Assembly: GCA_026025795.1 (NCBI GenBank) | Contig: JAPEUG010000127.1 | Span: 1 to 39,905, forward strand | Source of the DNA: Thelocarpon superellum | Lineage: Eukaryota | DNA length: 39,905 nucleotides | Direction of reading: 5' to 3' | Shown here: piece after piece, positions 6,934-27,834 of the stretch | Numbering within the stretch: position 1 is the stretch's first letter | Layout of the letters: each line of letters opens with the position of its first letter | Position numbers and translations under genes: made by a program | Notes under the pieces: model-generated | Database searches by the model: none | Seen by the model: only the letters and a program-made list of their open reading frames with translations | Told to the model about the DNA's origin: nothing

Positions 6934-8362
6934 GCATGTTAGTGGGCCGCCATTGTCGCACGCTCTCTCCGACTGCGAATTCTGCTTGGATGCTCCATCT
7001 CTGCTGCGACGGTAGGGGTGAACGGTTGAACGACTGCGGTTTCCCGGAGAGATGCTCTGTTACGGGCTGGAGTCGGGCGAATACAATTGGGCTGTACTAC
7101 TAGATGGATGGCTGTCGGCGTTCTTTTCGGGGCGACAACAGTATGGACGACTCATACCGTGCTATCCTAACGGCAGATAGCAATAGCGAGTGGACTAGCT
7201 CGAATGAATTGCTTCTGGTCCCGTCTCCACCACGCCACACGAGCGAACGCAGTAGAAGCCTTTGGGCAGTGGTCCGCCCGCGCTGACTCTACCACTGAAT
7301 AACACATGCCCAAATGACCGCCTCAGTCATTGGGGCCCCAGCATTAGCCGTTATATGATGGGATGGTGCTGATGGAGGTCAGTGTGCGGCTTGGGTATAC
7401 GCAGGCTGCTTGTACTGTCCAGCGGTCGTCAACATTACCTGACTGATCAGGCACACCCATTGTCGGCGGAACTCGTCAGATGCGACCCCGCTGCAGGGTG
7501 CGTACGCTTGCGTGTTTGACTCCCTCTCCCTCGCGGGCAAGTTCGGAGGCGTCCACGGGCGTTGTGCCGCTAAACGGCGCCTCTAAACGTTGTATTCCGC
7601 GCGTGGCATGCCTCTGGCCAAGCCACCGTCCGTTGCCTTAGCGGGGACTGGCCGTCGAAGACTCAGGGTTAAGCGAAGAAGCCGCCAACCAGAAGCCTCG
7701 GTCCTCGAGGCACTGAGACGCAGGATGGGCGCCGCACTTCGGAACTCTGGCACCTCCTTGGCTCCTTGGCACTTTGGCGCCGGCAATACAGGCACTGGCA
7801 TTTTGGCACTTTCGCCCTGGCAGCTTAGCGTCTTCTACCACGCGCGGCACTTGCCGAGCTTCGTTCAGTGGGACCACGGACGAGGCCGGACTACGGCGAG
7901 CAGCAGTACCATGGTAGGTAAGTGAGCAACGTACAGAGGCACAGAAATGGTCGACACGGCGACCGGCGGCCAGCGACCAACGCGTCTGCCCCTCGAGTCC
8001 ATCCTCGGCGAACCGCGGTCTGAGGCGCCCCGACGACGTGGCCATCATCGTCCTGACTCCAACCCCGTGGCTGCCTGTCGGTGACTTTGCGTGCTCTCCA
8101 GCCTCGTCGGCCCTTTCGGGTTGCCCTGCTGCAGGTTGTTTTGCTTAATGCTGGCTCGTTGCACCGCATCCGTTGGATGCTTCGCTCGACTGCCTGGCTC
8201 TCTGTGTCCGCTGCTTGATGGACAGGCTCTCCGACGCGCGCACTGCCCATGAAATATCTGCGGCTCCATCGTGCGGGCGAGCATCGTGCGTGGCATCCAA
8301 ATCCAAATCCTGCTCCGGCCGTGCGTGTGGATGACCAGCAAGACCAGCGAGAGCGAGACGAG

Positions 8363-10192
8363 ATGGACGGCATGGACAGCCAACCCGCCACCCAGCCGGT
8401 CATGGACCCACGGCGGATCGGACGGAACAACTCGGGCCTGTCCGAATCCGATCTGGCCGACGTCATCTGCGTCTTCCATCCATGCACCACCAGCGCCATT
8501 CGCATCGTGGCCTGGATGGCTCGACACGCGCCCCAGCACATCTTGCAGAATGACGATCTCCTCGACGCCCTCGACGGTGGCCTCCTACAGCCTAGGGTGG
8601 CTGAGGGAAGAGACATCGCCCTGCGGATGTCGTCTTCGGTGAAGGATCCCGCCTTGGGGTTCGTCTTCGGGCGTGCCCGGCACAAGAGCGATGTTCTGCT
8701 GTGCGATGACCAGTGGAACAGCCTCATCAGCCAGCAACACTTTCGCGTCTACGTCAATACGCAAGGCTCGCTGATGCTGCAAGACATGTCCACCAACGGC
8801 ACCTGGGTCGACCAGATTGTCTTGCGCTCCCGCGCCTTTACCGCTGGCGCCCCACCGGACGCGGAGGATTGGGGCTCGCAACGGATGCTGACGGGCGGCA
8901 ACATGGTTCACGTCCTCATCTCATCGGGCGGCAGCGAAGAGGCGGCCAAGTTCATCGTCCGTATCCCTTCGCGCGATGGCTACGAAGACGCGTACTTTGA
9001 CGCGCTGGATGACTACATTGCCCGGACCGCGCGAGCTCAGCACGTCACAGCTCGTGCGGGACAGAGACGTCCTGCCGGCGGGCCGCTCTTTCCCGCCGTC
9101 GCGACTCCACCCGTCGGCCGTCTGGCGTCGCAAGCCTATCGATCGTCGGCCAGCCTGGCTCAGCTCGGCAAGGTGTGGGATGGGGGGAAGGACTACAACG
9201 TCATTGGCACGGCGGGCAAAGGCGCGTTCGCGACGGTATGGAAGATTGCGACGAAGCGAGACGGCGAGGTGTATGCGGCCAAGGAGATCAGCAAGCGGCA
9301 GTTTTTGAAGAATGGCGTCCTCGATCAGAAGCTGGACAACGAGATGCGCATCATGCGTCAGCTTCGACATGTGAGTGGCAGATAATGGCTCGACATGACG
9401 GGAGCTGACGGAGATAGCGTCATATTGTCCAATACATCTCGCATCTGGAGGAGAAAGACAGCATGTACATCATCATGGAGTTTGTTCCCGGCGGCGATCT
9501 CAGCTCGGTGATCAACGAACGGGGACCTTTACCGGAGCCCGGCGCAAAGGTGGTGGCGAGCCAAATCTTGCTGGCCTTGGAATATCTGCACGCGCGAAAG
9601 ATCACGCATCGGGACATCAAGCCCGACAATATCCTGATTGTGCGGGAGGATCCGATGGAAGTCAAACTGTCCGACTTTGGCCTGTCCAAGGTCATTGACA
9701 ATCAGGAGACGATGTTGAAGACGTTCTGCGGTACGCTGCTCTATTGCGCGCCGGAAGTCTTTAGTCGCTATCCCGACTATGTCAAGGAGTCCCGGCTCGA
9801 CCGACGCGGCAAGCGACCCCGACCCGATCGCGCGGAGTCACGCCCGCACTCGTACAACCAAGCTTGCGATATCTGGTCCTTCGCCGCGGTCATCTTCATG
9901 GCCCTCAGTGGCAAGGCGCCTTTCACGGCCGAGTCGGGCGACAAGGATTTTATGCTCGACAAGATCATGACGACGGAGCTGGACGTGGGGCCGTTGAGAC
10001 GCCGAGGCGTGTCGGAAGCAGGCATCGTCTTTCTGCGGAAGCTCCTCAACCGGCGACCCGAGCTGCGTCCGATGGAACGAGAGTGTCTGTGCGACCCCTG
10101 GTTGAAGGATGGGTCCACCTCAATGGCCACGGACGAGCACGTGGCTGGGGAGATGTTGGAACCAGGCGACGAGCCAGATGTCGATGTCGATT

Positions 10193-10234
<42 letters not shown>

Positions 10235-11889
10235 TCTTGGACACAGCATATCGAGAAGCGCGAGAATTGAAGCGGGCAAAGATTGGAGCTTTCGGGGCTT
10301 TCGGAGCTCTTGGAGCGCCTGAAATGACAGGCGCGTTTGGCCTCCGCGAAGACACTATGGCCGAGATACCTTCCAGTCCGGACGTGCAGATCCATTCGCC
10401 CACGATGGCCATGGCCGTTGGGAGAGACGGAGAAGAGACGCGTTTGTTTGGAGAGGTTGGCACCTCGGCGCTTGGAAGCTCGGGGGTTATCCCCGGGACT
10501 CATCTCAACCTGGGACTGCAAGACAGTTCGAATGATGAGAAGTCGGCGAATGACGCCGAGATGGCTGACATGGGTGAAACACTGCCAAGGCGAAATCAGC
10601 TTGAGCACCAGGCATCAGCACTGGGCAGTCTCCTGGGAACGGAAGCGTTGGTGGGCCAACTGAACGTGACTTCCCCCCAGCACTCGACGCACTCAGCACA
10701 CTCAACCCATTCGACGCCGAAATCAGCAACGACGCCAGTGACGCCCAAAACTCGGGAGCTCTCCCCGATGGGCGGGGCCACGACCATGGCGAAGGACAGG
10801 CTCACCCAAGACAGGGAGCCCTCCCCAACCCCCGCCCCGGCCCCCAAGACATTTATCCGGCGTATCAACCTGCCCATCCCCGACTCTTACTATTACGATC
10901 CATGGGACAAGTCGACGCATAACGCGGAGTATGCAGCCAAGATGCGCGCGTTGGAGCAGAAGGCAGACGGGGAGAAGTCGGAGCCGGCGCCAGGACCGGC
11001 GTCCGTCTCGATGGCCGCCGCTCCAGCCACAGACGCCGACGCCGCACGCAAGAAAGCCAACCAGACATTCAACGGGCTCTCGAGCACCGGTACGAGACAC
11101 TCCAGCACGACCGCGCCAACCACACAACCGCTCAGCAACGCCATCACCGTGCCACCACCCCGGCCTCCATTTCCACCCACGCCCGTCGTGCCCCTCCTCG
11201 GCAAGCTCAGCACCACGCCCACCTCTCTCTTCGATCTCACCATCCCGCTCACGAACCGCGAAACCTCCTGGGGCCGCGGCAGCAGCAACACGCACATCTA
11301 CTCCGACGCGGCCGAGACGCGCATCCCCAAATACGCCTTGGACATCTTGTTCTGGCGCGCGGGGCTCGCGGATGAAGTCGCCCGCGGCACGCCCTGGACC
11401 GACGTCGCCAACGTCCCCGCCCTGATCAAGACCCGCACCTCGCGCCGCATCCTCGTCAATGGCGTCAAGCTCTTCCGAGAGACGGACAAGGGCAATCCGT
11501 TCGGCAGACTGTATTCTGGTGACGTCGTTACGATCTTCAGGGAGGGTGAGGGGCGGAGGGATGATGCGGAAGGAAACGGAGCTGGGAACGGGAGCGGGAA
11601 TGGGAATGCAGATGTGGAGGCGCAGCACGCGGAAGACATGGTAGATGGGAGAGGAGGGAGAGAAGGAAAGGGAGGCGAAGGCGAAGGCTCACTGGAGTTC
11701 ATCTGCGAGTTCTACCACGGGGCCTCGGCGCGACCGAGACCACCGGCCGAGACGCCCTTCGTGATGGACTACGCGTTGTTTGGGGACGGTGCGGGTGCGG
11801 GTGCGGGTGCGGGTGCTGCCACTGGCACAGCCACTACCACAGCTTCTACTACCGCTATCGCCACTGCTTCTACTACCATCACTGACTAG
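8363..11889 (+). CDS. RAD53: Checkpoint kinase Rad53/Chk2 (FHA1-kinase-FHA2); exons 8363-9370, 9418-11889
   Basis: N-terminal SQ/TQ (DSQPATQP). FHA1 motifs GFVFGR..SQQHF..STNGTWV. Kinase motifs GKGAFATV, AAK, HRDIKPDN, DFG, TFCGTLLYCAPE. C-terminal FHA2 (TSWGR..RIPKYAL..VNGVKL). Intron 9371-9417 GTGAGT..GCTGAC..TAG. Start is uncertain (8249, 8363 or 8372). Confidence 0.9.
10195..10233 (+). repeat. (GACGAG)n coding repeat encoding poly(Asp-Glu) in RAD53
   Basis: Directly visible tandem hexamer. Confidence 0.9.
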
Positions 11890-15656: not shown

Positions 15657-18600
15657 TCACGGTGTCGCGTCGTCGCTGTGCATGCTGCCCAACTTCGGCG
15701 CTTTGGGCGTGGCGTCGATGTCCATCGCCACGTCGGCCACAGTATCGCCAGGCGCACGAGGGAAGATCTCCGGAGGCGTGATGGTCGCACAGAGCTCCCT
15801 CTCCTCCTCGTCCGCCTTGGTCCGGTCGGGGGCCGGGAGTGAGACGTCCGAGGTAGAGACGACACTGCCACGACTGTTGGTCCGCATCATCTCCACCCCC
15901 AGTCTCGAGCTACGCTGCGCCCGACTATGCGGACTGCGCGACCGCACGTTACCCAGCTCTTCGTCCTCGTCGTCGCCCGATTCGCCACCTTGGAATCGCT
16001 TCAAGTGCACGCCGTCGCGCTTGGTCCTAATTTTCTCCGTCGACCGTTGACGCTCCAACGGCTTGGACGGCAGCGCGGCCGGTGCCGATTGCTGCTGCAC
16101 CAGGTGCGGCGGCGCCTTGGTCTCCGTCAACGCCTCCTCTGAGATGCCCAGTCCCGTTTCGGCCCAGTCGTCGGGGTGTCGGTTGATGATGACCGGCATT
16201 TCTTCCGCCACGATGGAGTCGGCGTCGCCGAAGAAGCTTGAGCTGATAGAATCCTCGCGCGACGAGCCTCGGAAGGTGGTGCCGGGCATGTGGGCGAAGC
16301 CCGACGAGGCCGAGCTGGGACTGTCCTCAGACCGCACCGACTCTTGCCGCAGGCCCGACCCCGGCACGCCCGTCGGATACGTCGGGTAGACCCCAGGTGG
16401 GAGCGGCTTCCAATGGCACAGCCGCGACATGACCTCCGTCAGCTTACCCACCGTTGGCGGCTTCTCGATCATGGCGTCGAAGTGGTGCGGTGCCTGCAAC
16501 TCTTTCAGGTAGCCCGTCACCGCCACAATGGGCGTCTGCGAGTTGACGTTCTTTGTGTCACGGATCATGCGGGCCACATCGGCCCCGTTGATCCGCGGCA
16601 GCTTAAACTCCATCATGATGATGTCAAACTTGACGTCGCTCATCGCGAACCGCGTCGCCTCGTCGCCGTTGCCCACGGTAATGGTCCGACATCGCAACTT
16701 CTCCAGCAGCGCCTCCATGACCAGGCGCGAGACCGGATGGTCCTCGCAGATGAGCACATCCAATGGACGGAAGATGGGCCCTTCGTTGACGTTGATCTGC
16801 GAGAGGCGCCGCGAGCTCTGCCGCCGTCGTTGCACGCGGAGTAAGGCGTTGGTGCGCGTATCCTCATTGTCTGAGGACGACGGAGACATGTCGAAGACGC
16901 CGCTGCGTCGTTTCTGATCGACGAATCGTTCCTTGGCCGGACTCTCGCCATCCTGCGATCCGACGGTGTGAGAGCGCGCGCGCGACACCGGCCCGCTGCG
17001 GGGGGGAAGCGCTTTCTGCGGAGAAGTGATGAGGGGAACCGTCGCGCGCCCCTGTTTGATGGGCGATGTTGCCAGGCCCGCCATCTTGGAGCCGGACGTG
17101 AGGCGTGGCGCCTCGAAGAGGCTACCTGGCTGCAGAGAGGACGTGCTCGACGTCTTCCGGCGTTCGCCCGTCGGGCCCGAAGTGAAGGTGATCAGGAGGG
17201 GCGACGACGGTTGCGACACTCGGCTCGGCGACGAGCCAGCTTGACTCATGGCCGACGGCGAGGCCGGCCTATTGTTGCTCTTCGACGTCGAGATCTGCCG
17301 CTTGAGCGTCATCGGGAGGACCGGGCTGTTCTCAAGCGACGGCGCCGGCGACGGACCGGCCGAGGTCGTACCTGTCGGCAGGTTCTTGACTTGGGCCTGC
17401 ATCGCCTCGGCTCGGAGCTTCTGAATCACGTCTTTGTTCGCCTTCTCCAGCACCGGCAGGTTCTTGAAGGCGAACGAGCCAAAGTCGTCGGCGCCTACTG
17501 GCTCGCTGAGCCGGCGACTGCGGCTCTCTCGCACATGCGACGGGATGTGCAGCGGCATCAATGTGCGCTTGATCGAGTTGACGTGGGTGCGCACTTTGGA
17601 TAGGACATCGTGTGGTCGCGTGGGCATCTCTGCGCCCGGCGTGTCGGCGGGCGACGACGTCGCCTCTTCCTCGGCGAAGGCTTGGAGAGTGGCGCCCCGC
17701 GCGTCAAAGTACTCCGTATTCTCTGGATCGTCCGAGGCTGGCACAAACTGCGCCTCGTCCTGCAGCAGCGTATCCCAGTTAATGTCGTGGAACCACGGAT
17801 GTCGCTGGACCTCTTCGCCACCACATGAGAAGCGGTCGTGAGCGTTAGCGCCCAGGCGCTCCTGCGGGTTGAGGCACATGAGCCGGTTCATCAAGTCTTT
17901 CGCCTCGGCCGAGACCGGCATCGCGTCTTCCTCGGGCCAGTCGATCTTGCGTTCGAGGATGTTGGAGAAGACCTGCTCTGGTGTGTTGGCATGGAAGGGC
18001 GGGTAGCCGTACAGAAACTCGAACAAGATGCAGCCGAGGGACCACCAATCACTCATCTCATCCTGGCCCACGCCGTTGATGGTCTCGGGCGCTAGGTAGT
18101 CGGGGGTTCCCACGAATCGTCGCGTGCTGTCTTCGGGGTCAAACAGCGCCATGGGCGGTGGCATCATGCTCGGCGTCGCAGCCGACGTCGGCGGAGCTAC
18201 GTCGAGCGTGACGCTTGTGTGGCTATGGGCGTGATGCAGAGACCACGTCTCGGGCGAGCCGCTCCCGTCGCTGTACGGCTGGGACTCCTCTTCCGACGCA
18301 CTCCGTCGCGGCGGGCCCGCAGGTGCCGGAATAGGATCGCTGAGGGTGAAGTTACCCAACATCGCGTGGAGAGACTCACTGCCACCGCTGTCGCTGCGGT
18401 GTCCCGACGCGTGACCTGAGTGTTCGCGTCCCACGGACTTTTCGCGGCCCAGGGTAAAGTAGGAAGGGAAGCCGCCGCGACCGAGGTCGGGCGTCATCTG
18501 CGGCGTCGAGACGGGCGACGGATGGCCCTGCATGTCGAAGGATGTCGAGCGAGAGGAGGCCACAGAGGCGGGGGGAACGGCGAACGGGCCTTGTTTGAGG

Positions 18601-21370
18601 AGGTCCGGCGCCGAGTCATTGGCCTGATTCTCGAGCACGCGCTTCTGGCGCCCAATCAGGCCCATGCGTGACAGGCCAAAGTCGGTGAGTTTGAGGTGCC
18701 CGGTCTGGTCGATGAGGAGATTGTCGGGTTTGAGGTCACGGTGCACGATGCCTCGACCGTGCAGATGCTCCAGGCCAAGCACAACCTCGGCGAGGTACTT
18801 CTTGGCCCAGTGCTCAGGCAGGCCGCCCAAGACTTTGGTGAGCGAGGCACAGTCGCCGCCATTCAGATACTCCATGACAAGGTAGAGGTACTCCTTGCTG
18901 GAGAAAGTCCAGTACAGCTTGGCGACGAAGTCGCTCTCGCCCTGCCACATCATGATGGCACGCTCCGCTTTGACGTTGGTCACCTGATTCTTGGCCACCA
19001 TGTCGGCCTTCTTGAGCACCTTGATGGCAAAATAGTCGCCCGTCGATTTCTTCTTGGAGAGGTAGACGCTACCAAAGGCGCCCTTGCTGATGGGTTTGAT
19101 GATCTCAAAGTCCTTGATGGACGGCGCCACCGCCTTGGCCTGCGGCTGGCTCGTCATGAGCCGCGGCGAGAGCGGCGGCCGCACGTCGGTGGATGCCGAC
19201 GTCGTCGTGGACGATTGTCGCTTGTGGTGCAACACGAGGCCGGCGGGAGACGCGAGCTCGCTGCCCAAGACGGGCGAGGTCAGCGGTGAGTGGATGGCGT
19301 CGAGCACCTCGCCGAACGGTGGCTTGCCCATGCGCAGCGGAGACGGCGGTGGCATAACGCGACCCGGCGATTGTTGTCGGTGCGGAGACGAGGTGCCGGA
19401 CAAGGCGATGCTGCGGCGATGGCGGTCGCGGGTGCTCGTCGCCCGGCGGATGGTTGCATCGGGCCGGGGAGATTCTGTGCGGCGCGAGTCGAACATGATG
19501 GGTGACCGTACGCTGCCGTCACTGTCGCCCGCATCGCTCTCGAAGTACATGGATGATCGTTTCGAGCGGAGTGAGGGGTGCCCGGCCTGGTGGATGGAGA
19601 TGGAATCACGCAGCGAGCGCGGTGTAGCCGATTCTCGAGGGCTGCTGGAGCGGGCCGAGGGACTCGCAGACGGTCGACGACCCCCACGCACGCTCAGGGA
19701 GGATTCGGACACTTGACGCAAGGCCCGCGCTAACGAGGAGGAGCCGTCAAAGGATCCTGCAAACATGGCGGGTTCCTCGTGATTCACACTCCCGCCGTCC
19801 TCCGCCTCGTCGTCTTCCTCCTCCTCCGCTTCCTCCGTGTCCTCGTCCTCTTCGCGATCGCGCTCAGCCTCGTGTGCGTCTCCCTGGATCTCCGAGGCTT
19901 TGTGCATAGCCTCGTCAATGAGCTCTTGCACAAGGAGACTGAACTCGACGCGGATGCGTTCCGAATACTCGAGGATGCGTCGATGGCGCAGGACAGCATC
20001 GATCTTGGCGCGGGTGGCGGCCTCAGTGTCCGCACAGAGGGCGGCCAGGCCGGGCTCTTGGTCCAGCGTTGCCGTGCTAGGTTTCTGCCACGTGAGCACT
20101 TGCGAGACATTCGCCTCGGACGTCGGCGATTGGGTGCGAATGGCTTCCGCTGGGTCTTGCGTATCCTTGATGGCGGGTGTGTTGACCTCGATCGCGGTGT
20201 CGCAGAGATCGAGGACGATCTCAACGACCCGGGACAGGGGGCGACGAAGGGCGATAGAACGCGCGCGAGTATGCCCAAGCGGCGAGGGAGACTTGTCGCG
20301 CGAGCGTGCCCGGGAGGCCAGCGGTGACGCCGTGCCGGAGGTGTTGGATGACTGGTTGGTGGAGGAGCCAATGGGCATCCCCTTGTATTCGGGCTGGGGT
20401 GCGACCATGACTGCAATCTCTCCGGACGTAGGGCGACCGGTGCGGGCCTCGAGGCCCTCTAAGACCTTGACGATGAGGTTGCGGTGCTCGGTGAGAGCCT
20501 CGTGGGCCAACTGCACCTCCATCTCGGCGCGGTGCTCTTGCATGCATAGTTCCGTGTGCTTCTCGAACCACCACGGCGGGACATGGCGCTCGCAGATTCG
20601 GCATAAGACGGGGGCCGGTGGGGTGACGTTGGCGGGACCCTGATCCTCGGGCCCGGGCTCGGTCAAGGCGGTGAGATAACCGGCCAGGACTTCAGCGCCG
20701 ACGCCAAGCGACTCGACGAGGAGCGATGGGAGGTCCATGGTGACTTCACGCGGCTCTACCGAGGGCCGTAGCATCCACATGGTCTGTGAGGCATCAGCCA
20801 GCAGTCGTAGAAGATAGGAGCACGTGGCGAGGGCTTGCGGGAAATTTGACTTACGTGACTCTCGGCGCCTGTCTCACGATCGTAGACCATGATGCCCTGG
20901 CCTTCAAGAATGAGGGTGTCGGCCTCTCCCATCTGCTCGGCGCCTTGATCCTCTGGTGCCTCTCTCGGGGTGGTCGGGTCGAGGGGTTCGGGGGCCAACT
21001 TCGAGGCGGGGCCCATGAGGACCGAGACGCGTAGGCGCTGACTCCGGGAGCCATCCTGCTTCATGGACTCGACGGCTTCGGTGAAGGCGGTCTTGTGATC
21101 GAGGACGAGGTCGGCGATGAGTCGGCCACGGACAAGCTCGGGGGGCGTTCCCACCACCTCCTCCCACGACGGGCTGACCCAGCGGACGACGCCATCTAGG
21201 CTGACGTCGAGGATGACGTTCAGATTCTGTTCTGCGGCTTCCTTGAGGTCTTCTCGCTCCTCCTGGATATCTTGGCTCATGGTACGCTCCATCTGGCCCT
21301 GGATTGGTGGAGCATTCTGGCTTGCTTCTTCCTTTAGCGCCGTCACGGCGGGAGGGGCGAGGGCATCCAT
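15657..21370 (-). CDS. RIM15: Rim15/Cek1 (Greatwall-like) Ser/Thr kinase with PAS, C2HC zinc finger, split kinase and receiver domains; exons 21370-20855, 20783-15657
   Basis: PAS-like region (VRWVSPSWEEVVG). Zinc finger CRICER..HTELC. Kinase motifs SKGAFGSV, HRDLKPDN, DFGLS, then a long insert before FVGTPDYLAPE. C-terminal REC domain (LICEDHPVS..DIIMME..IVAVTG..KP). Intron 20854-20784 GTAAGT..CAG. Confidence 0.95.
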
Positions 21371-25350: not shown

Positions 25351-26147
25351 TCATCTCATGCCCTTCAAGAAGTTCGCTTCTTTGATAGAAGCGCGTCTCT
25401 TCTGGCGTAACCGACTCGTGATATCCTCTCTAGCTACTGTAGCCGCCAAGGCACCCTCGAGGTTGCCCGTCTCGTTGGCAGGCAGATCCACGCTTTGTTC
25501 CTCCGGAGGGATCTTGGGCAGCAACAACTCCGGATGCAGCGACGCGGCTTTACGCTGACGCTTCGCCGCCAGCCGGCGTTGTTTCTTGGATTTCGCTACG
25601 CGGGCAGCACGTCAGCACGCTTCATTGCAAGGTATACCTTTTTTGGATGCAACATTTGCGCGACGGACAAACGTCACTCACAAAATAAGTCTCCCTCGCC
25701 CGCGCCAGAGCCATCCGCCGCCACCAGACCTCCTTTGGCGTCCGCACTGCCTTCTGGCTCAAGGCATCGCCACAGCCAAGCGGGGTAGGCGCTCTCCTCT
25801 TCCGCGACCGGATCCGGCTTGTTCTTCAGGTATGACAGGCCTTTCAATGGGACACCGGCCGGGACGGAGCTAATCGGGAGGGGCGGTGCGTGGCTCTTGG
25901 AAACTTTGTGGATTTGCGGAGGGTCTGGAGAAGGTGTCAGAGGGGTCGAGAAGGGCTGGGCGGCACTGGTCGACGTCGCGGCTGGAGGCGGTGCGTCTGC
26001 CGCCGTAGAGGCCTTTCGTATCCTGGTGTTTCCAAGTCGAACGTTGTGGTTGTGGATGGTCGTGCTGGACAGTGGAAAGCGGCGGGGGATGAGGAGTGTG
26101 GGACCCGGCTGTAGGGTCTGCCGTTGCAGGCAGCGTTGGCAGATCAT
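25351..26147 (-). CDS. MRPL37: Mitochondrial large-subunit ribosomal protein mL54 (MRPL37 family); exons 26147-25682, 25595-25351
   Basis: Presequence-like start MICQRCLQR. Family motif SSVPAGVPLKGLSYLKNKPDPVA..YPAWLW. C-terminal RQKRRASIKEANFLKGMR after intron 25681-25596 (GTGAGT..GCTGAC..TAG). Confidence 0.9.
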
Positions 26148-26559
26148 GATATACGCGGATGGGGTGAGCCGTTTACACTTCGTCTTAGTGAGGCTCGTCA
26201 GCGATGCAGAAATGTTGTTGGTCCGTGATGTTGCGGCTGGAGCTAATGCCGCCGCCCGTAGACCGCGCCAGTCCCTTCGACTCAGAGACAGCACCAACAA
26301 TACGATGATTGAGTTGAAGGCATGGTTTGCACCCTTAGGATGTAGCTGCGAACATTTGCCCTTGTAGATCCATAACTTGCAAGGGATAACACCCGCGATG
26401 ACAGATTCTCTATCAATCAACAGGAAGCCTTGCAGACTCTCGCGCTTGTATGTCACCTGGAAATCTCAGTCGAGAAGCCCATATTATGGCCCCCTTCATG
26501 ACCCAGCCCTTCACGACACAACGCCATTGCAACCGGCCACCATCCGGCCCCGTCCATCA

Positions 26560-27834
26560 TCATACGCTGACGCTCGAAGCTCCACTGGTACTCCATCGAA
26601 ATTTGCGCAAGCCCCGAAACGCTTCCCTTCCGCAGTCTCCCCCATCGGTCGTGTTGGTGAAGCCGACTTCGGCCAAACCCGCTTCGCGGCCCATGGCGTA
26701 GCCGGCCGAGAAGCCGATGGCCGACACGATGACCACCACACCGGCTGAGACGACCCAGGTCAGTAACGTGGGTGAAATTGTATCTTCCACGCCCCGCCGT
26801 GTTTTCTTCGTCGCTCGTTCCTTGCCGCTCTTACCAGGATACGAGCCGGACTTCCGCTTTCCTTTCTCCAACACCAGATCGCTCGACGATGACGACGAGG
26901 ACGGCTTCCGAGCGCATGCTTCCTCTATCAGGCCCCGATCGTCTCCATCGTTGGCCCCGTCGACAACCGACTCGGGCACGATCCGGAAGGCGCTTGGTCG
27001 GCTACTGGAGGGGACGGATCGCGCCGCTGCGCCGGCAGCTGGCGTCGCCTTAGAGAGCCCTCGTGCTGCGGCAGCGCACGATAGCAGGGTCGAGAGACTG
27101 GCTCGCAGTGCGGCATCATGGTCGGCTTGGTATGATGGCGAGATGAAATTGTAGGGCGTGTGCTGTGGCGTGCGCCGGCTGGGATATGAATTTCGATGGG
27201 GGCGGCCAGAACCATTCTGCCGTGGGAAATATGAGCCAGGTACAGCTTCCGCGTTGGGCTGGGACGATGGTGGATGGGAGAAGGCGTTGGGCTGGGGGGT
27301 GAAGACGGTGTTGGTGCGGGTGCCTAAGGCGGTGGTGTTCTCGTCATTATCGTCTTCGTCGAACGTGGACTCATAGGTAGCCGGCAAGGGCGGGCTGACG
27401 CCCAGATGTGACGACTGCGGGAGGGCGGGTTCGTCCTCGTCGCTCTCGCTGTCCTCATATTCTTCTTGGCTACTCCCGGCGCTCGACGAGTTCGCTAGGA
27501 GGCTCGGCTGCGACGGCCCTCGTAGTTCCAGGCGACGGCTCCGTCGAATATTGGAGTGCCGTCGGACGCGTAGACCCGTGGTTACGATCTCGTCTGCGGC
27601 CGCAGACGAGGAAAGCGATGAAGAAGACGGCTGCGAAGCGATTTCCACCCACGATTCTGCCCGGCCCTGGTTAGCTCGCAGAAGCACGAGGAACGGCGTC
27701 ATCCACCACTTACCATCGGATCGCGGTCGCGCACTATCGCTCACAGACCGTCCGATGCCTTGGACAGGTTGAGCCTGTCGCTGTGCCGATTCACTCGGCA
27801 TCAGCTCGGCCGGTCGCGGACTCGAATGCTGCAT
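26560..27834 (-). CDS. Uncharacterised tail-anchored membrane protein with N-terminal SWVEI motif; exons 27834-27714, 27656-26560
   Basis: Long ORF with a 57-nt intron 27713-27657 (GTAAGT..GCTAAC..CAG). Disordered Ser-rich body, helix DHDAALRASLSTLLSCAAAARGL, and a C-terminal hydrophobic segment LLTWVVSAGVVVIVSAIGFSAGYAMG flanked by basic residues. Confidence 0.85.
   Translation of the reverse strand: MQHSSPRPAELMPSESAQRQAQPVQGIGRSVSDSARPRSDGKWWMTPFLVLLRANQGRAESWVEIASQPSSSSLSSSAAADEIVTTGLRVRRHSNIRRSRRLELRGPSQPSLLANSSSAGSSQEEYEDSESDEDEPALPQSSHLGVSPPLPATYESTFDEDDNDENTTALGTRTNTVFTPQPNAFSHPPSSQPNAEAVPGSYFPRQNGSGRPHRNSYPSRRTPQHTPYNFISPSYQADHDAALRASLSTLLSCAAAARGLSKATPAAGAAARSVPSSSRPSAFRIVPESVVDGANDGDDRGLIEEACARKPSSSSSSSDLVLEKGKRKSGSYPGKSGKERATKKTRRGVEDTISPTLLTWVVSAGVVVIVSAIGFSAGYAMGREAGLAEVGFTNTTDGGDCGREAFRGLRKFRWSTSGASSVSV

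Follow-up and report, generated by a model that had tools for sequence, protein, structure and literature searches.

How do filamentous ascomycetes connect an organelle that is to be degraded to the autophagy machinery? These fungi make up most of the plant-pathogenic, industrial and lichen-forming fungi and carry out selective autophagy that depends on Atg11, but an integral-membrane receptor of the Atg32 type is not known from them. The question is raised by a gene of Thelocarpon superellum at 27834-26560 on the minus strand of contig JAPEUG010000127.1 (assembly GCA_026025795.1), of which we analyzed the 39,905 nucleotides from position 1 (the window, to which all positions refer). A sequence-only reading of the window had proposed that the product is a BNIP3/NIX/Atg32-like mitophagy receptor. 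Judged from motif grammar and architecture, the gene encodes a candidate membrane-anchored selective-autophagy receptor that would bind Atg8 and Atg11 in a phosphorylation-dependent manner, and we consider this interpretation evenly poised between right and wrong. What stands of the original proposal is the layout and the conserved motifs, which are as in membrane-anchored receptors; its kinship with BNIP3 and NIX is not supported.

Conserved motifs in the presumed cytosolic arm

The following features of the window protein belong to this arm.

27640..27654, minus strand: SWVEI, candidate Atg8-interacting motif (AIM; LC3-interacting region, LIR), with D-E ahead of it, read from the sequence
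27604..27636, minus strand: serine tract SQPSSSSLSSS directly after the W motif, >90% column conservation in alignment A4
27571..27594, minus strand: DEIVTTGL, a di-aliphatic motif flanked by acidic residues and Thr, first candidate Atg11-binding region (similar to a FIP200-interacting region, FIR; cf. SDDSDIVTLE of CCPG1, PMC6971691), 60-80% column conservation
27532..27546, minus strand: basic run RRSRR (family consensus RRRRR), from the alignments
27430..27486, minus strand: acidic serine cluster SSAGSSQEEYEDSESDEDE with CK2-type S-x-x-[DE] sites, read from the sequence and the alignments

The conservation of every motif was computed directly. Our census started from 488 homologues and counted motifs in the 376 that have the acidic block with at least 55 residues upstream; those inspected among the 112 left out were mostly N-terminally truncated models or fragments, many of them starting at an internal Met of the acidic serine block (block 4 below). 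The W motif, counted as [ST]-W-[VIF]-[EDGQ]-[ILV], is present in 374 of the 376 homologues that keep the N-terminal region, compared with 0.5/376 in shuffled N-terminal segments. An earlier census of 274 had found only P0005 and P0233 without W-x-x-[ILV] at the motif position; both look like splice-site or gene-model errors, and they are taken to be the two misses of the larger census. The surroundings of the W motif are disordered and otherwise poorly conserved, and the motif itself is among the most conserved features of the cytosolic arm. By inspection, the Ser ahead of the W sits in an S-x-x-E context, which would allow a phospho-enhancement of the kind that the sequence-only reading cites for BNIP3/NIX.

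That reading had pointed to the W motif and the acidic cluster, and our analysis adds one or two conserved di-aliphatic motifs of putative Atg11-binding region (Atg11BR) or FIR type. According to the review from which we took the definition, Atg11-binding regions are di-aliphatic sequences within Ser/Thr/Asp/Glu-rich sequence (PMC6971691). Motif 1, of the DEIVTTGL type, was found in 264 of the 376 homologues (shuffled, 2.1/376) at a median of 17 residues past the W, and motif 2, a hydrophobic pair plus a Ser/Thr run after the acidic block, in 331 (shuffled, 1.9/376). Of the 376, 371 have one or both of these di-aliphatic Ser/Thr/acid-rich motifs (224 both, 107 motif 2 alone, 40 motif 1 alone) and 5 have neither; these counts describe conservation, not independent events, because the homologues share ancestry.

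Gene model

The minus-strand gene has two exons, and its spliced product is 405 amino acids long.

27714..27834, minus strand: exon 1, with the ATG at 27834, 40 codons and the first base of the next; its product is disordered and ends ...RPRSD
27657..27713, minus strand: intron of 57 nt with canonical fungal signals, GTAAGT ... GCTAAC branch site ... CAG, in frame and without a stop
26560..27656, minus strand: exon 2 including the stop (TGA, 26562-26560)

Read across the junction, the spliced protein runs ...RPRSD-ESWVEIASQPSSSSLSS. The exon 1 product aligns with the N-terminus of P0003 in alignment A1. P0003 is the nearest homologue among the matches listed (64% identical) and is without the 19 intron-encoded residues; most of the other 24 homologue rows of A1 are likewise empty at the intron position. 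Removal of the 57-nt intron is thus supported, with homology as its one line of support, because P0003 matches exon 1 and is without the intron-encoded residues; the gene model as a whole is read directly in the same way, by homology.

A second potential intron within exon 2 (26745-26834, minus strand, 90 nt, in frame, GTAAGA ... TTACTGAC (CTGAC) ... CAG) is most likely not spliced. We rejected it because homologues keep the encoded residues, including the invariant S-P-T-L-L-T-W at the start of the transmembrane (TM) helix.

Two peculiarities of the homologous gene models may be recorded here. Many Lecanoromycete models (P0035, P0037, P0040, P0052, P0068, P0072, P0084 and P0109) start only about 12 residues ahead of the W motif, with the segment M-x-x-x-Y-S-F-[DN]-Y-[YF]-T-E-S-W. 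Either the N-terminus is short in these lineages, or their start codons were placed within the intron ahead of the W motif. P0255, with 1101 amino acids, joins a zinc-finger-like, TM-containing N-terminal part to the first two-thirds of the family sequence and is probably a merged gene model.

Disordered body, membrane anchor and tail

AlphaFold2, run on a 69-row alignment, gave a mean predicted local distance difference test score (pLDDT) of 50.3 and disorder apart from two substantial helices, at residues 177-197 (block pLDDT ~76) and 295-319 of the exon-2 protein. Both the disorder and the TM helix are direct computations. The features of this part are the following.

27268..27306, minus strand: VFTPQPNAFSHPP, highly conserved linear motif, ~90% or more column conservation
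27049..27162, minus strand: HTPYNFISPSYQADHDAALRASLSTLLSCAAAARGLSK, most conserved block and only predicted cytosolic helix, with invariant or near-invariant columns (AlphaFold2 helix 177-197)
26794..26865, minus strand: KGKRK ... KKTRR, a basic stretch shortly ahead of the TM helix, from the alignments
26689..26769, minus strand: TM helix TLLTWVVSAGVVVIVSAIGFSAGYAMG, ending G-x-x-x-G-x-x-x-G (family [S/G]xxxGxxxG; AlphaFold2 helix 295-319)
26563..26688, minus strand: C-terminal tail of 42 amino acids with a conserved Cys (CGRE) and the basic LRKFRW block, from the alignment

Columns W, G and G of the TM helix are invariant in alignment A4. An anchor could be recognised, with 15 or more tail residues after it, in 359 members, and in 353 of them the helix ends with G-[YF]-x-x-G, which in the window protein lies within G-x-x-x-G-x-x-x-G. 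Over these 359 members, the medians are 27 residues for the uncharged stretch, 2.27 for the best 19-residue hydropathy and +6 for the net charge of the 30 residues upstream. For the tail, the medians are 48 amino acids in length and +4 in net charge; exactly one tail Cys is present in 290/359 members and an N-x-S/T sequon in 181/359 tails.

All four features that the sequence-only reading had described were recovered at the places it gave. The SWVEI of the spliced N-terminus (27654-27640) is encoded as described, the acidic serine cluster stands at 27486-27430, the AlphaFold2 model agrees with a disordered body that has one short helix, and the single C-terminal TM helix with small-xxx-small motifs and basic flanks lies at 26769-26689, followed by a tail of 42 amino acids. 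The conservation check that it had proposed showed that all classes of filamentous ascomycetes seen keep the W motif, the acidic serine cluster and the TM helix with its small-xxx-small motifs.

Alignments A1, A2 and A4 show the family as a series of short, strongly conserved blocks with variable disordered sequence between them. From the N-terminus, the blocks are as follows.

Block 1: E-S-W-[VI]-E-[IV], then S-Q-P-S-S-S-S-L-S-S
Block 2: D-E-I-V-T-T-G-L
Block 3: basic run RRRRR
Block 4: S-S-Q-E-E-Y-E-E-S-E-S-E-S-D, in most members followed by R-[VI]-[ML]-[TS]-S-S-N-E
Block 5: D-D-D-D-E-N-x-T-A-L-G
Block 6: V-F-T-P-Q-P-N-A-F-S-H-P-P
Block 7: S-Y-F-P
Block 8: H-T-P-Y-N-x-I-S-P-S-x-Q-A-D-H-D-A-A-L-R-A-S-L-S-T-L-L-S-C-A-A-A-A-R-G-L-P-K, the best conserved of the blocks, with the sole predicted cytosolic helix
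Block 9: V-P-E-S
Block 10: K-G-K-R-K and K-K-x-R-R
Block 11: TM helix
Block 12: tail with C-G-K-E and L-R-R-L-R-W

Family extent

Of the 8000 candidates that a word-indexed search scored, 1882 proteins matched at E<=1e-3. A profile search that covered exhaustively 1.84 billion cluster representatives gave 282 matches at E<=1e-3, of which 263 also passed E<=1e-10 and 206 passed E<=1e-30, and we regard the family as compact because there are few marginal matches. Among the matches listed (3 x 120 best rows), all labels are "hypothetical" or "uncharacterized" save a few automatic ones, e.g., "REJ domain-containing" and "Transmembrane protein," and all named organisms, the names being taken from the best rows of each homologue search, are filamentous ascomycetes. 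They comprise lichen-forming and allied lineages, Lecanoromycetes, Xylona (Xylonomycetes), Leotiomycetes, one dothideomycete, many Sordariomycetes (including Colletotrichum, Trichoderma, Podospora, Sordaria brevicollis, Fusarium and Verticillium), Chaetothyriales and Verrucariales. The family is thus unnamed, broad and class-spanning and, among the matches listed, has so far been seen only in filamentous ascomycetes.

Database searches with known families as targets returned no relative. An hmmscan of the window protein against Pfam-A gave 0 families at E<=10, and a Pfam scan of 114 family members at E<=1 matched neither BNIP3 nor any credible family; the commonest match, Herpes_pp38 (16/114, best E 0.0093), was taken as noise. 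The family profile matched no PDB chain at E<=10, and the protein atlas gave unnamed Ascomycota clusters only and no named one. The kinship with BNIP3 and NIX that the sequence-only reading had suggested is therefore not borne out by the Pfam scans (window protein and 114 members) or by the PDB search at E<=10.

An earlier candidate in Sordaria

Has the family been noticed before? Kuck and Stein (2021) state that an Atg32 homologue has not been detected in filamentous euascomycetes, and their Table S1 assembles 27 motif-based Atg32-like candidates, among them SMAC_02823 of Sordaria macrospora (PMC8226480). The entry gives the LIR "SWVEI," the acidic clusters EED and DDD, a C-terminal TM helix and a CK2 site, and places the protein "exclusively in euascomycetes" (PMC8226480). 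The family member of Sordaria brevicollis, P0376, has SWVEI, S-E-E-D and S-D-D-D-E-N. Because P0376 carries the tabulated motifs, SMAC_02823, judged from its Table S1 motif entry, is very probably an orthologue. The receptor idea is hence not wholly new, since SMAC_02823 already stood, unpursued, in a candidate table of 2021. We found no follow-up of its candidacy: full-text searches for "SMAC_04227" and "SWVEI," which had supplements outside their reach, gave no further fungal paper. As to phosphoproteomic evidence, the identifier SMAC_02823 did not occur in the part of the STRIPAK proteomics supplements that was searched (12 small files and part of the proteome spreadsheet). Literature searches, again with the supplements of other papers outside their reach, found no described receptor of this kind in filamentous fungi. 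For plant-pathogenic fungi, the available text of a review of November 2026 lists no mitophagy factors beyond Atg24, SUN-family proteins and prohibitins (PMC13757524), and that of a review of May 2026 discusses only yeast receptors (PMC13208281).

How the protein might work, and what else it might be

We hypothesize that the protein sits in an organelle membrane by way of its C-terminal TM helix, with about 295 disordered residues directed toward the cytosol, and that the helix may pair via its [S/G]xxxGxxxG face. Acidophilic kinases of the CK2 or Hrr25 type would phosphorylate serines near the W motif and in the acidic cluster, upon which E-S-W-V-E-I would dock on Atg8 and DEIVTTGL would bind the C-terminal domain of Atg11. 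In most relatives, the second di-aliphatic motif after the acidic cluster would likewise bind Atg11. The phagophore would thereby be recruited to the organelle. All binding events, the phosphorylation, the topology and the location we infer from the motifs and from the layout, in which a putative N-terminal AIM/LIR, a long disordered linker and a C-terminal TM helix are arranged as in known membrane-anchored autophagy receptors.

A complex prediction with residues 1-116 of a Pezizomycotina-type Atg8 (metagenome locus L025) and residues 1-80 of the window protein, counted from ESWVEI, gave a median score of 0.32 against a mark of 0.34, with controls at 0.00-0.01, and weighs neither for nor against Atg8 binding. 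As observations on the Atg8 side, the metagenome contigs L017, L025 and L079 hold intron-less, full-length fungal Atg8 open reading frames (ORFs) and appear transcript-like, and the core of the Pezizomycotina-type Atg8 is nearly identical over dozens of loci.

Several points weigh against a receptor. Motifs of the form W/F/Y-x-x-L/I/V occur frequently, and Atg8 binding fails for many that are predicted. Homology to known receptors was not found in the Pfam, PDB profile and protein atlas searches. The window protein belongs to the class with motif 1 only and has lost motif 2, which is near-invariant elsewhere: after the acidic cluster it reads ...D-E-P-A-L-P-Q-S-S-H-L, whereas P0003 and P0004, the two nearest relatives among the matches listed, have ...E-[QR]-I-M-T-S-S-N-E..., in line with the family consensus R-V/I-M/L-T-S-S-N-E, whose S-S-x-E positions are ~90% conserved in the family and present in P0003 and P0004 too. 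The window copy looks like a lineage-specific in-frame loss of ~8 codons at 27428-27432 (minus strand). Motif 1, for its part, is absent in 112/376 homologues, e.g., in several divergent members whose close relatives are named as Chaetothyriales. The basic clusters next to the TM helix resemble a bipartite nuclear signal, and the tail of 42 to 48 amino acids exceeds that of typical tail-anchored proteins. For SMAC_02823, the WoLF PSORT output in Table S1 is "nucl 14, mito 3," and Kuck and Stein favored another protein, SMAC_04227 (PMC8226480). Mitophagy factors have, moreover, already been described in filamentous ascomycetes (PMC10938464, PMC13757524).

If not a receptor, what could the protein be? 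A serious competitor, to which we give somewhat less than an even chance, is a membrane-anchored, phospho-regulated scaffold or regulator that has no receptor role, such as an organelle tether, a docking platform for kinases or phosphatases, or a nuclear-envelope protein; the W, acidic and di-aliphatic motifs would then serve other partners. Such a role would suit the at least 8 separate conserved linear motifs, most of them without a known autophagy meaning (for example VFTPQPNAFSHPP, SYFP, the DHDAALRASL helix, IVPES, KGKRK and the LRRLRW tail), the lack of homology to autophagy proteins in the Pfam and PDB profile searches and the "nucl" prediction for SMAC_02823 (PMC8226480). What speaks for a receptor and against a scaffold is the exact pairing and order of the motifs, which are as in receptors in the available text of PMC6971691: an acid/Ser-flanked W-x-x-[ILV], a di-aliphatic motif a median of 17 residues on, a disordered arm and a TM anchor, with the W motif standing out in the arm by its conservation. 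That the protein descends from a common ancestor with yeast Atg32 or animal BNIP3/NIX, as a true orthologue diverged almost beyond recognition, we consider highly improbable. The W-V-E-[ILV] core does equal the BNIP3/NIX motif quoted in the sequence-only reading, the small-xxx-small TM motif is present on both sides, and AIM, Atg11BR and TM helix are ordered as in Atg32; short motifs of such kind, however, arise convergently, no credible Pfam family, BNIP3 included, was matched by the window protein or the 114 members at E<=1, the family profile had no PDB match at E<=10, and no folded domain is predicted where Atg32 has one.

Which organelle would a receptor serve? Its features would be compatible with mitochondria, peroxisomes or the endoplasmic reticulum (ER)/nuclear envelope, and "mitophagy" is a guess within a reasonable selective-autophagy-receptor hypothesis. 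Mitochondria are our first guess, and a doubtful one, because both flanks of the TM helix are strongly basic and most known receptors of such layout are mitochondrial. For tail-anchored proteins, basic TM flanks favor mitochondria or peroxisomes over the ER; the +6/+4 flanks and the TM hydropathy of 2.27 found here do not separate mitochondria from peroxisome or ER. A receptor for the ER/nuclear envelope, similar to Atg39 or CCPG1, or for peroxisomes, which would be the same kind of protein with a different cargo, appears unlikely. Atg39 and CCPG1 share the plan of an N-terminal AIM/LIR plus Atg11BR/FIR, a disordered arm, a single-pass TM helix and a lumenal C-terminus (PMC6971691), and bipartite basic clusters adjoin the TM helix of our family, whose median hydropathy is fairly high. 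The single conserved tail Cys (290/359) would suit an oxidizing lumen. The "nucl" output for SMAC_02823 (PMC8226480) points the same way, and nucleophagy factors beyond budding yeast are largely unknown, according to the available text of the May 2026 review (PMC13208281). Against an ER/nuclear-envelope cargo, the tail is ~48 amino acids long compared with the long lumenal parts of Atg39 and CCPG1 (PMC6971691, Table 1), and the sequon occurs in just 181 of the 359 tails. The charges of +4 in the tail and +6 in the upstream flank favor mitochondria or peroxisomes by the rules for tail-anchored proteins. Against peroxisomes counts that pexophagy in Beauveria bassiana has already been ascribed to Pex14-Nbr1 (PMC12042473).

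Returning to a receptor on mitochondria, it is tempting, and just as doubtful as that first guess, to see in the family the missing Atg32-equivalent of filamentous ascomycetes, i.e., a mitophagy receptor of the outer mitochondrial membrane with an origin independent of Atg32 and BNIP3/NIX. It would then have arrived at their grammar by convergence, with a W-V-E-[ILV] Atg8 motif flanked by Ser, one or two Atg11-binding motifs under phospho-regulation and a TM helix of the glycine-zipper type.

Significance

The family looks single-copy, spans classes and shows the complete motif grammar of a receptor, and it thus provides a concrete gene for functional study. If it does encode a receptor, it would represent a third independent origin of the design that combines a W motif with a TM anchor and would open the study of organelle removal in fungal development and infection. 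If it does not, it is still a deeply conserved, uncharacterized membrane protein with at least 8 conserved linear motifs.

Neighboring genes

The neighbors are ordinary fungal genes without an evident link to the receptor candidate.

15660-20873, minus strand: ORF of 1738 codons, stop to stop, with protein kinase and response-regulator receiver domains, which we take to be a Rim15-like architecture
8219-11886, plus strand: two adjacent ORFs with an FHA domain and a split protein kinase domain, probably a single checkpoint-kinase-like gene with an intron
25677-26465, minus strand, immediately downstream: mitochondrial ribosomal protein L37 domain; such adjacency carries no functional weight in fungal genomes

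Comparison with known receptors

MoAti1 of Magnaporthe oryzae, considered as the same protein, was ruled out: it is a SUN-domain protein without a TM helix in the available description (PMC10938464).

In plan, the family resembles Atg39, a nucleophagy receptor of yeast, and CCPG1, an ER-phagy receptor of vertebrates, both single-pass TM proteins with a disordered cytosolic N-terminus (PMC6971691). Atg39 has the AIM WNLV and the Atg11BR DVLSNTSS, and CCPG1 has the LIR WTVI and two FIRs, SHEGSDIEMLNS and SDDSDIVTLE (PMC6971691). At the level of motifs and predictions, the window protein has the same order of an AIM/LIR near the N-terminus, Atg11BR/FIR motifs, a disordered arm and a single TM helix, and most family members carry two di-aliphatic motifs, as CCPG1 carries two FIRs. 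Unlike Atg39 and CCPG1, which have a long lumenal C-terminal part in the excerpt and are located in the ER/nuclear envelope, the family has a short tail (42 amino acids in the window protein, median 48) and no sequence homology to either.

With BNIP3/NIX (NIX is also named BNIP3L), the mitophagy receptors of animals, the family shares the N-terminal Ser-flanked W-V-E-[L/I] motif, in the BNIP3/NIX form as the sequence-only reading quotes it and with putative binding here, a largely disordered cytosolic part and a single C-terminal TM helix. BNIP3 has a small-xxx-G-xxx-G dimerization face in its TM helix and a very short tail after it; the [S/G]xxxGxxxG motif is present in the family, but the tail has 42 to 48 amino acids. 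The window protein also differs from BNIP3/NIX in being about twice as long, in its Atg11BR/FIR-like motifs and in having, by eye, no recognizable BH3 region.

Atg32, the mitophagy receptor of budding yeast, has a folded cytosolic pseudo-receiver domain and a longer intermembrane-space part, whereas in the window protein no folded cytosolic domain is predicted (mean pLDDT 50.3, one 21-residue cytosolic helix) and the tail is much shorter. The likeness to Atg32 concerns its described features, namely, the order of an AIM, an Atg11-binding region whose phosphorylatable Ser/Thr lie close to an acidic cluster, and a single TM helix near the C-terminus, with a cytosolic N-terminus (PMC8226480), and the AIM-then-Atg11BR match is one at the motif level. 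In print, the two have complementary distributions, no Atg32 homologue being reported in filamentous euascomycetes in the available text (PMC8226480). The comparison with BNIP3, NIX and Atg32 therefore holds in the sense of "works like" and not of "is a member of."

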